Translations under genes and position numbers: made by a program
The notes under the pieces: generated by a model
The model's database searches: none
What the model was told of the DNA's origin: nothing
Seen by the model: the letters and a program-made list of their open reading frames with translations, nothing else
Source of the DNA: a virus
Taxonomy: Monodnaviria; Loebvirae; Hofneiviricota; Faserviricetes; Tubulavirales; Inoviridae
IMG/VR virus record: IMGVR_UViG_2603880148_000001
Length of the DNA stretch: 8,398 bases
Reading direction: 5' to 3' (one strand)
Part shown: positions 2,348 to 4,348 of the stretch, in pieces
Numbering within the stretch: the first letter of the stretch is position 1
Layout of the letters: every line of letters starts with the position of its first letter

Positions 2348-4348
2348 GTGACTGAATCAGCCATCCTTACAGCGTATAACGCCATCGACGCGGCATCCGT
2401 TGCCCTTGGTCGTCCCTGCCTGACGCTGCCCGAACGCGAGCATTTTCGGACTGAGCGCGATGTTGCCACCCGCAACCTTGCCACGCTTTCCCGCCAGTAT
2501 CGTGATGAAGTCGGGACCTTATCTGCACAGCTCGCATTGCCGCGTAACACGCAGGTTGACCGTGTGATTTACGGAATTAACTGCACGGATTTTTCACTCG
2601 CTGACAGGGGCAGGGCTGCCGGACTGGTATCACAGTTTGGCTCGTTTTCGTTCACCGTGGCGCATGCTTTCTGCCGTCTGGTTTACCAGCTCGGTGTGAA
2701 AAATGCGCTGATGGCGCTTGAGTCCGCGCACCGTTTTGCTTTCTTCAATCAGGACGGAGACCCTTATGAATTCTCGCTTTTCTGCACTGATGAGCAGATT
2801 GCTGAGGTGGCTGATTCGGTTGTTCGTGACTGCCTTGTTTCTCGGGCCATTTATAGTGATGTACCAGAGCATCACCTTCTCAATGTGATGGCCTATTTTC
2901 AGGCCATCTCCGGCTTTGATTTCGCCCCCGTTTATGCCACTTATCATGAACGTTACGGCGATGAGGGATTGCTTAAGCGTCTGACTGATTTGGCTTTTGT
3001 CACCCGTTTCCTGCGGGTTGTCCGTGACCAGCGGGTTAATGAGGTTTGTCGCATGCTCGGCATACTGAACCGCAACGCGCCTTATATTTCTGACTGGCAT
3101 CGTGACCTGTTTGCTGTCCGCAGTAAACGCGTGAAAAAGTATCTCCGGTCCTCCGGTGTCTTTGATGCGTTTAATGAACTGGTCTGTACGCTGGAAGATG
3201 CGCATAACGCCTCTGTTTCGAATCCGAAAAACCGGATTGCTGAACTCTGCGTTCGTGGAAAGGCCGTCTGTGAACTGTCCGAAGATATGGGGCTGTCCGG
3301 CTATTTCATCGTGCTCACCACGCCGTCACGTTTTCACCCGACGACCAGTTTTAAAGTTGCCGGAAAATGGCATTCTCGTCCGAATAAAAAATGGTGGGAA
3401 GCAGGTTGCCCGACCGTTAAGGATTCGCACGCCTGGCTGAATACCGTCTGGCGTCGGGTCTGCCGCAGACTGGATAAAGCCGGTATTCAGATACCCGGCC
3501 TGCGTACGGTCGAGCCTCATGCTGACGGTACAACGCACTGGAATTTCCTGATTTACTGCAATCCCCATGAGAGCGCAACGGTGCTGGCCATTTTCCGTGA
3601 AGAGGCCATGCGCGATGAGCCGGATGAAAAGGGGGCGAAAGAGCACCGTATTCGTATTGAGGCTATTGACCCTGAAAAGGGTGATGGTTTCCGTTACATC
3701 GTGAAGTACATCACCAAAATGGCGGGGGATGTCAGTGCGGATGGTATTACCGCCCTGAATGACCGTTATTCTGCCCGTTCATTCTGTGATGCCGTCAGCC
3801 GTGCCGCCTGCTGGCAGAAAGCAACGCGCCTTCGCCTGTTCCAGTTCTTTGGCGTTCCCTCCGTTACGGCTTACCGCCAGATGCGCAGCTTCCGCGCACC
3901 GCTTGAGGCGCATCATATCAATATGCAGCAGTTCACGCCGCAGCAGGTCGCCGAACTGGAAGCCATCCGCATGGCCTGTGATGCAGGCGATTTCCGGACC
4001 TATATCCTGCTGAACGGCGGTTTCTTCTGTTCTGAACGTCTGCTTCGTCCGTTTTACGTTCAGCCGCAGGAAGGTGGTAAACCCCGTTTTAACCGTTACG
4101 GTGAACCCTGCGCACCAGTGATTTCCGGTTTCATGTTTGGCCCTGTTCCGGTCATAACCCGTTTTATGGGCTGTGTTGTCCGCCGTATGACCCCCGCAGA
4201 AAAAATCCGCGCAGAGGAAGTCAGAAGCGGCAGCAGCTATGAATCTGTGTTTATTTCGTCGGCTTCACGACACCGCACGACGCGCTCCCGCGCGGCGGGT
4301 GGGGGCGGCGAAGCCGACCCTTGGACTTGTGACAATAACTGTCCCTGA
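2348..4348 (+). CDS. Rolling-circle replication initiation protein (phiX174 gpA / P2 gpA-like; RstA/gII position)
   Basis: Long ORF (track 2249..4348). Preferred start is the in-frame GTG at 2348, 4 nt after GGGGGG (2338-2343); in-frame TTG alternatives at 2249 and 2335. Catalytic-type motif RYIVKYITK (Y-x-x-K-Y-x-x-K, nt 3695-3718) matches the two-tyrosine motif 3 of phiX174 A-type Reps. Stop TGA 4346-4348. Confidence 0.75.

Follow-up and report, generated by a model that had tools for sequence, protein, structure and literature searches.

Proteins of the phage P2 gpA family are two-tyrosine HUH-fold nickases, and in solved HUH enzymes both histidines of the HUH motif bind metal. In our alignment the motifs of the P2 A protein lie at residues 391 (EPHH), 399-401 (HWH) and 450-457 (YIAKYISK), and the two tyrosines of motif 3 are part of its active site, as given in the passage of PMC3986222 that cites Odegrip and Haggard-Ljungquist (2001). 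HUH-type Reps are a minority among filamentous phages, in which Rep_trans is the commonest initiator type (PMC13595969), and the initiators of CTXphi, VGJphi and Pf belong to another family, Pfam PF02486 (PMC4863604). One HUH Rep cluster spans Myoviridae, Corticoviridae and Inoviridae, in a passage that names neither P2 nor gpA (PMC6668415); this cluster probably includes the gpA family, and that passage has probably already noted that myoviruses and inoviruses have this Rep type in common, so that the gain here on this point is incremental.

The Rep protein described here is encoded within a stretch of 8,398 nucleotides (the window, which denotes the whole stretch analysed). The phage records closest to it are the filamentous Vibrio phages VFJ and fs2, followed by P2-like tailed phages. 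We conclude with considerable confidence that the rep gene of this filamentous E. coli prophage encodes a gpA-family nickase with a selected HUN motif (H-u-N in place of H-u-H) and with its likely origin at its own 3' end. As a protein Rep is of a known kind; its defining motif is present in a conserved variant form, and its putative origin is newly located.

The rep gene and its prophage

The rep gene belongs to an inovirus prophage at the dif region of E. coli, adjoining hipBA. The features of the window are as follows, with strands given for the phage genes.

1-267: hipB of E. coli
267-1589: hipA of E. coli
2012-2200, minus strand: 62-aa ORF, divergent from rep
2243-2322, unstranded: operator-like repeats upstream of rep in the divergent promoter region, TTGCAnnTnTGCACAATTGCAC in two copies and a palindrome
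2348-4348, plus strand: rep, gpA-family rolling-circle initiator, 666 aa from the GTG at 2348; alternative start TTG at 2336
4379-4804, plus strand: g5-like gene after rep, with small coat-like ORFs next
5440-6825, plus strand: pIII-like gene, Gly/Ser-rich
6828-7184, plus strand: pVI-like gene
7187-8398, plus strand: Zot/pI gene

The rep gene lies within the plus-strand open frame 2249-4348, which is 699 aa in full. A reading of the sequence alone had placed a large Rep of about 667 aa at 2348-4348 on this strand, and translation from the GTG gives 666 aa. RefSeq, where the product is named 'replication endonuclease', starts the gene at TTG 2336 (670 aa) in one genome and at the GTG equivalent (666 aa) in another. 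The description of Rep as unusually large holds only in comparison with Ff gII and CTXphi RstA; within its own family it is average or short, P2 A having 761 aa, VFJ Rep 698 aa, fs2 Rep 716 aa and members of the HUN clade (see below) 649-777 aa.

In E. coli strain 600029 a stretch 99.5% identical to the window continues past the window end into a secretin gene and a dif site; a near-perfect dif, with one mismatch, stands at the far prophage end (L001 16447-16474). At the near end, two inverted sets of dif-like half-sites occupy window positions 1666-1759, AGTGCGCATAATG...CGTTATGTTGAAAA being paired with TTTTATACATAACG...CATTGTGCGCACT, with a 14-bp perfect hairpin between them, 77 nt past the hipA stop codon. 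These sets resemble an attP in folded single-stranded form, as in CTXphi-type Xer-dependent integration. E. coli EC12 carries a head-to-tail tandem prophage array (L132 4965-14380) with a unit of ~8.39 kb and a dif-like junction between copies, and this array could let rolling-circle replication run from origin to origin without excision.

In the region upstream of rep, TTGCAnnTnTGCACAATTGCAC is a 22-nt direct repeat whose copies are 52 nt apart and are overlapped by the palindrome (repeat families D1 and I1); these repeats at 2243-2322 are probably operators. Homologs of the 62-aa ORF occur in four Xenorhabdus loci, placed differently relative to rep. The pIII-like gene at 5440-6825 contains a long run of GGSSGSGGSGSGS repeats, accompanied by long spurious ORFs on the opposite strand and in the other frames.

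A scan of the genome collection returned six loci. The g5-like gene follows rep in the window and in Salmonella and Xenorhabdus loci, and two loci also have a Zot homolog, so that these Salmonella and Xenorhabdus loci are filamentous prophages as well. In several further E. coli genomes the window is matched by BLAST in two to four joined pieces. IMG/VR record IMGVR_UViG_2693429536_000001 is close to the window in length (8403 nt) and encodes a Rep 99.7% identical to the one described here; the element is thus already on record as a fragment of a viral genome. A megablast search of the phage collection with the prophage as query gave no match. Identity with CUS-1 or YpfPhi was considered and dropped, there being no Yersinia protein among the clade clusters examined; for YpfPhi, the review text consulted gives no family for the replication gene YPO2274 in the part that covers it.

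Family membership and predicted structure

The sequence-only reading had likened Rep to P2 gpA-type initiators, and profile searches bear this out, assigning it to a Rep family and not to a non-Rep one. A Pfam scan matches Rep to Phage_GPA (PF05840) at 166.8 bits against a cutoff of 31.4 (E=8e-49), and PHROGs places residues 156-699 of the 699-aa frame in phrog_91, 'nicking at origin of replication' (E=1e-128). An exhaustive profile search yields 1,915 family representatives at E<=0.001. Besides PF05840, the Pfam scan at E<=1 returns only a sub-threshold match to PF23343 (17.4 bits, cutoff 27.8); Rep_trans (PF02486) does not appear in it. There is no Pfam or PDB match that would make Rep a member of the phiX174 A-type (Microviridae) family, to which the likeness is at the level of motifs only. 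The NCBIfam search of Rep gave no match, and phmmer against PDB sequences gave none even at E<=10, so that Rep has no solved close relative among them. From these sequence comparisons we assign Rep to the phage P2 gpA family of two-tyrosine HUH-fold nickases, of which it is a HUN variant.

Rep and P2 A belong to the same Pfam family and have the same order of motifs 1, 2 and 3, tyrosines at 450 and 454 in a Y-x-x-K-Y-x-x-K motif, a common C-terminal region, and an origin, putative for Rep, within the rep gene or at its end. They differ in that overall identity is ~25%, Rep is 95 residues shorter, and P2 A has H-W-H and EPHH where Rep has H-W-N and EPHA; moreover P2 is a tailed dsDNA phage, whereas Rep is encoded by a filamentous ssDNA prophage. 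The fs2 orf716 and VFJ orf698 Reps (genus Saetivirus) are ~30% identical to Rep over 85% of its length. As in the window, their rep gene stands directly before the gene for the ssDNA-binding protein, and it has the nick-site block at its stop codon with a strong hairpin before it. VFJ Rep, unlike Rep, has two histidines (H-N-H) as well as EPHH, and lies outside the HUN clade.

The AlphaFold2 model of Rep is confident: its pLDDT is 88.7 over the full length and 91.1 in the core, and its pTM is 0.86. An alpha/beta core bearing all three motifs is flanked by three other regions:

2348-3151, plus strand: N-terminal all-helical region, residues 1 to ~268, pLDDT >90 and helices only in the AlphaFold2 model
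3863-4231, plus strand: C-terminal conserved region, residues 506-628, with alignment columns common to P2 A and VFJ Rep
4232-4345, plus strand: disordered C-terminal tail, residues 629-666, pLDDT <50; its DNA houses the putative origin

The model places motif 2 in a beta hairpin made of strands 384-390 and 396-404, and motif 3 on a helix (448-459). The core has the predicted RRM-like/ferredoxin-like fold of the HUH superfamily, with the HUH strand next to the tyrosine helix. Foldseek also returned the nuclease domains of AAV and parvoviruses, weakly. The N-terminal region can be aligned with VFJ Rep from residue 43, and possibly serves in binding the origin or a host factor. The suggestion that the part from about residue 500 to 667 is an added domain does not stand, because residues 500 to ~628 align with both P2 A and VFJ Rep and are well modelled, with pLDDT mostly 81-95 across the C-terminal region; columns invariant with P2 A and VFJ Rep there are R510, R513, D545, G557, G558, Y584, G594 and T604. 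In the tail the protein is not conserved, but the DNA block inside it is.

The catalytic motifs and the HUN clade

The motifs were aligned across P2 A, VFJ Rep and 56 database homologs, and all three fall in invariant or near-invariant columns of the 59 aligned family members; the motif matches are therefore not due to chance.

3305-3337, plus strand: motif 1, residues 320-330, a beta strand of the catalytic core
3509-3556, plus strand: motif 2, variant of the metal-binding motif, H397-W-N399, residues 388-403, with the Asn codon at 3542-3544
3695-3718, plus strand: motif 3, YIVKYITK (Y450, Y454, K457), the predicted catalytic tyrosines, both on one helix

In motif 1, F320, T324, P326, S327 and H330 are invariant family-wide. 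YIVKYITK, which begins at nt 3695, does occupy the motif 3 position as had been proposed, aligning with YIAKYISK (Y450/Y454) of P2 A, and its two tyrosines and its lysine are invariant in the 59 aligned sequences. It was also correctly recognised as the motif of phiX174 A, which reads YVAKYVNK (Y343/Y347); phiX174 A resembles Rep further in that its origin lies within its own gene, and has an H-u-H of its own, HFH at 263.

Motif 2 departs from the full form E-P-H-H-D-G-T-P-H-u-H at two positions, the second histidine of HUH being replaced by Asn and the second histidine of EPHH by Ala; E389, H391, D393 and the first HUH histidine (H397) are kept. The absence of a His-hydrophobic-His motif, remarked upon from the sequence, is complete, since the 666 aa, scanned with a regular expression, contain no H-x-H, and matches to H-x-N/Q are solely HWN at 397-399 and HIN at 523. 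THWNFLIY (residues 396-403) aligns with PHWHMMLF of P2 A (motif 2 of Rep aligned with P2 A: VEPHHDGTPHWHMMLF), and N399 aligns exactly with the second histidine of H-W-H 399-401, so that Asn takes its place, as the first reading had put forward.

Motif 2 was recognisable in 213 family sequences, of which 170 carry H-u-H and the other 43 H-W-N. In a neighbour-joining tree of a 209-sequence core set, 39 H-W-N Reps, the query included, form a monophyletic group with no H-u-H member inside it. H-W-N is invariant in all 39, and the second histidine is present in 100% of the 167 non-clade members. The clade is drawn from E. coli, Salmonella, Providencia, Morganella and Xenorhabdus, and its members are 40-98% identical to the query. 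Outside it, three unrelated gpA-family proteins (P0119, P0200 and P0230) have EPHHDGTPHWN and H-u-H nearest neighbours, and the change from His to Asn has therefore arisen more than once. The term 'HUN motif' was not found in a literature search.

Other substitutions are fixed in the clade together with H399N, namely T322V (in motif 1), F403Y, Q497L and E511Q, at positions where one residue accounts for 74-99% of the rest of the family (T322 for 99% of HUH members). The second histidine of EPHH, residue 392, has been lost in the HUN clade, where the position is variable (A, K, V, R, N or T).

3311, 3521, 3554, 3836 and 3878, plus strand: codons of the clade-specific residues 322, 392, 403, 497 and 511, from the family alignment

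Purifying selection on rep is strong. Measured between the window and the copy in E. coli EC12, dN/dS is 0.076 for rep overall, 0.11 for the N-terminal region, 0.078 for the C-terminal conserved region and 0.010 for the catalytic core, in which 28 changes are synonymous and one is non-synonymous. Most loci encode N399 by AAT, one by AAC. The clade-wide invariance of the Asn, the synonymous variation of its codon and the low dN/dS together indicate that it is selected in a working enzyme. Judged by these comparisons, HUN is a fixed, selected feature of the Rep clade of enterobacterial filamentous phages and not a product of decay, and since the deviation in motif 2 is both clade-wide and selected, Rep is a variant member of the gpA family and not a non-member.

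It could be argued that Rep is catalytically crippled, the loss of the second histidines of HUH and EPHH marking a defective prophage gene, a remnant or a DNA-binding regulator. The invariance of the second histidine in the 167 other family members would agree with such a loss of function, as would the finding that at least 80% of the window is present in one place in only six of 5,426 complete E. coli genomes, from which it follows that many copies are partial. We regard this as very improbable, however, given the dN/dS of the catalytic core and the retention of the other family-wide invariants (E389, H391, D393, H397, Y450, Y454 and K457). HUN is moreover fixed over several genera, beside complete filamentous-phage modules, the nick-site block described below is conserved, and strain EC12 has the tandem prophage array. 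The change from His to Asn takes a single C-to-A substitution and would be easily reverted, yet the Asn persists with a synonymous codon change.

The amide oxygen of N399 would probably replace His as a metal ligand, together with some of E389, H391, D393 and H397. Functional Reps of circovirus type that lack the second histidine (HLQ/HUQ) provide a precedent (PMC7468197). The Reps of circoviruses, nanoviruses and cruciviruses are like Rep in that an amide side chain takes the place of the second HUH histidine in functional nickases (PMC7468197), and differ from it in having Gln and not Asn, one tyrosine, a fused SF3 helicase and eukaryotic hosts; they have no detectable sequence relationship to Rep. 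All 167 members outside the clade have His at this position, so that losing it could come at a functional cost or alter function.

A different account holds that the second histidine is not a metal ligand in the gpA family at all, the metal being held by E389, H391, D393 and H397, and that H399N is neutral or structural. In its favour, the family has an unusual wealth of invariant candidate ligands shortly before this position, E389-P-H391-x-D393, and the H-to-N change occurred at least three further times in the family. At a neutral site, on the other hand, one would not expect every one of 167 sequences to have His and every one of 39 to have Asn, and the clade-wide co-changes T322V, F403Y, Q497L and E511Q suggest a remodelled active site and not drift. 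We therefore consider this account unlikely, and favour replacement of the His ligand by N399.

A putative origin at the end of rep

When the window was compared by k-mers with six clade loci, one conserved run of DNA stood out, at 4318-4346; it is nearly invariant in five clade loci, and its flanks cannot be aligned. This block spans the last nine codons of rep and its stop codon.

4273-4320, plus strand: G+C-rich inverted repeats (hairpins), directly 5' of the nick block; DNA fold z = -3.1
4318-4346, plus strand: putative plus-strand origin and nick site CCCTTGGACTTGTGACAATAACTGTCCCT, with a core 22-mer at 4321-4342

The rep gene of VFJ ends with the same block in a different reading frame. 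In P2 the block is found at codon 619 of the 761 codons of gene A, where it covers the 'nick site at ori' at 29892, a position taken from the rep_origin annotation of RefSeq NC_001895; the 22-mer at 4321-4342 is identical to the annotated P2 nick region at 17 of 22 bases. P2 A runs ~140 residues past its origin, whereas the putative Rep origin overlaps the stop codon. When a degenerate form of the 22-mer, TYGGASTYSTGWCAMTAACTGT, was scanned against IMG/VR, at least 120 contigs matched, and in 116 of the 120 contigs listed the motif lies within the 3' part of a same-strand gpA-type gene or shortly beyond it. From the alignment with P2, the nick is predicted at or next to G4323.

Hairpins of different sequence stand at the same place in VFJ (z = -4.6) and in one Xenorhabdus locus (z = -4.2), but support for them is uneven, with z = -0.9 in the Salmonella locus, just a 5-bp hairpin in P2, and a fold curtailed by a 6-nt insertion in another locus (L009).

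The segment 4326-4338 of the block and the phiX174 origin CAACTTGATATTAATAAC (L010 401-417) have ACTTG and AATAAC in common, one base closer together in the window. Kinship with the phiX174 origin was considered and kept as a loose similarity only, as the spacing of the elements differs and the offset of the nick from AATAAC is not the same in P2 and phiX174; the likeness may be partly coincidental.

That this block of 28 nt at the end of rep is not an origin, but a signal for translation or transcription of the g5-like gene or for packaging, seems to us quite unlikely. Its position 33 nt upstream of the g5-like ATG at 4379, with hairpins flanking it, would fit such a signal. In P2, however, it lies ~430 nt inside gene A, at the very position of the annotated ori nick and far from gene starts; P2-like contigs have it inside the gpA-type gene, and in VFJ it is conserved in another reading frame. 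The reading as a plus-strand origin is accordingly preferred.

By analogy with P2 A and phiX174 A, Rep would bind the double-stranded replicative form and cut the plus strand within TTGGACTTGTGACAATAACTGT, the block overlapping the last codons of its own gene, becoming joined to the DNA 5' end through Tyr450 or Tyr454 as a 5'-phosphotyrosine. Host polymerase would then extend the free 3'-OH, and after one round the second tyrosine would cut the regenerated origin, resolving the first linkage and releasing a circular single strand. We infer nicking and metal binding by Rep, and the position of its nick, from these better known systems.

The conserved nick block provides a concrete putative origin for filamentous prophages of E. 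coli, Salmonella, Providencia and Xenorhabdus, and suggests that a P2-type origin travels with its rep gene. A more speculative proposal joins two parts into one, and as a whole we hold it as a possibility well short of probable: that H-u-N together with T322V, F403Y, Q497L, E511Q and the loss of the EPHH histidine defines a distinct subtype of two-tyrosine nickase with altered metal binding, and that rep with its embedded origin has moved as a self-contained cassette between tailed P2-like and filamentous phages. If this were true, the distinct subtype could mean another metal preference or deliberately weakened nicking, fitted to the chronic, non-lytic life cycle of filamentous phages.
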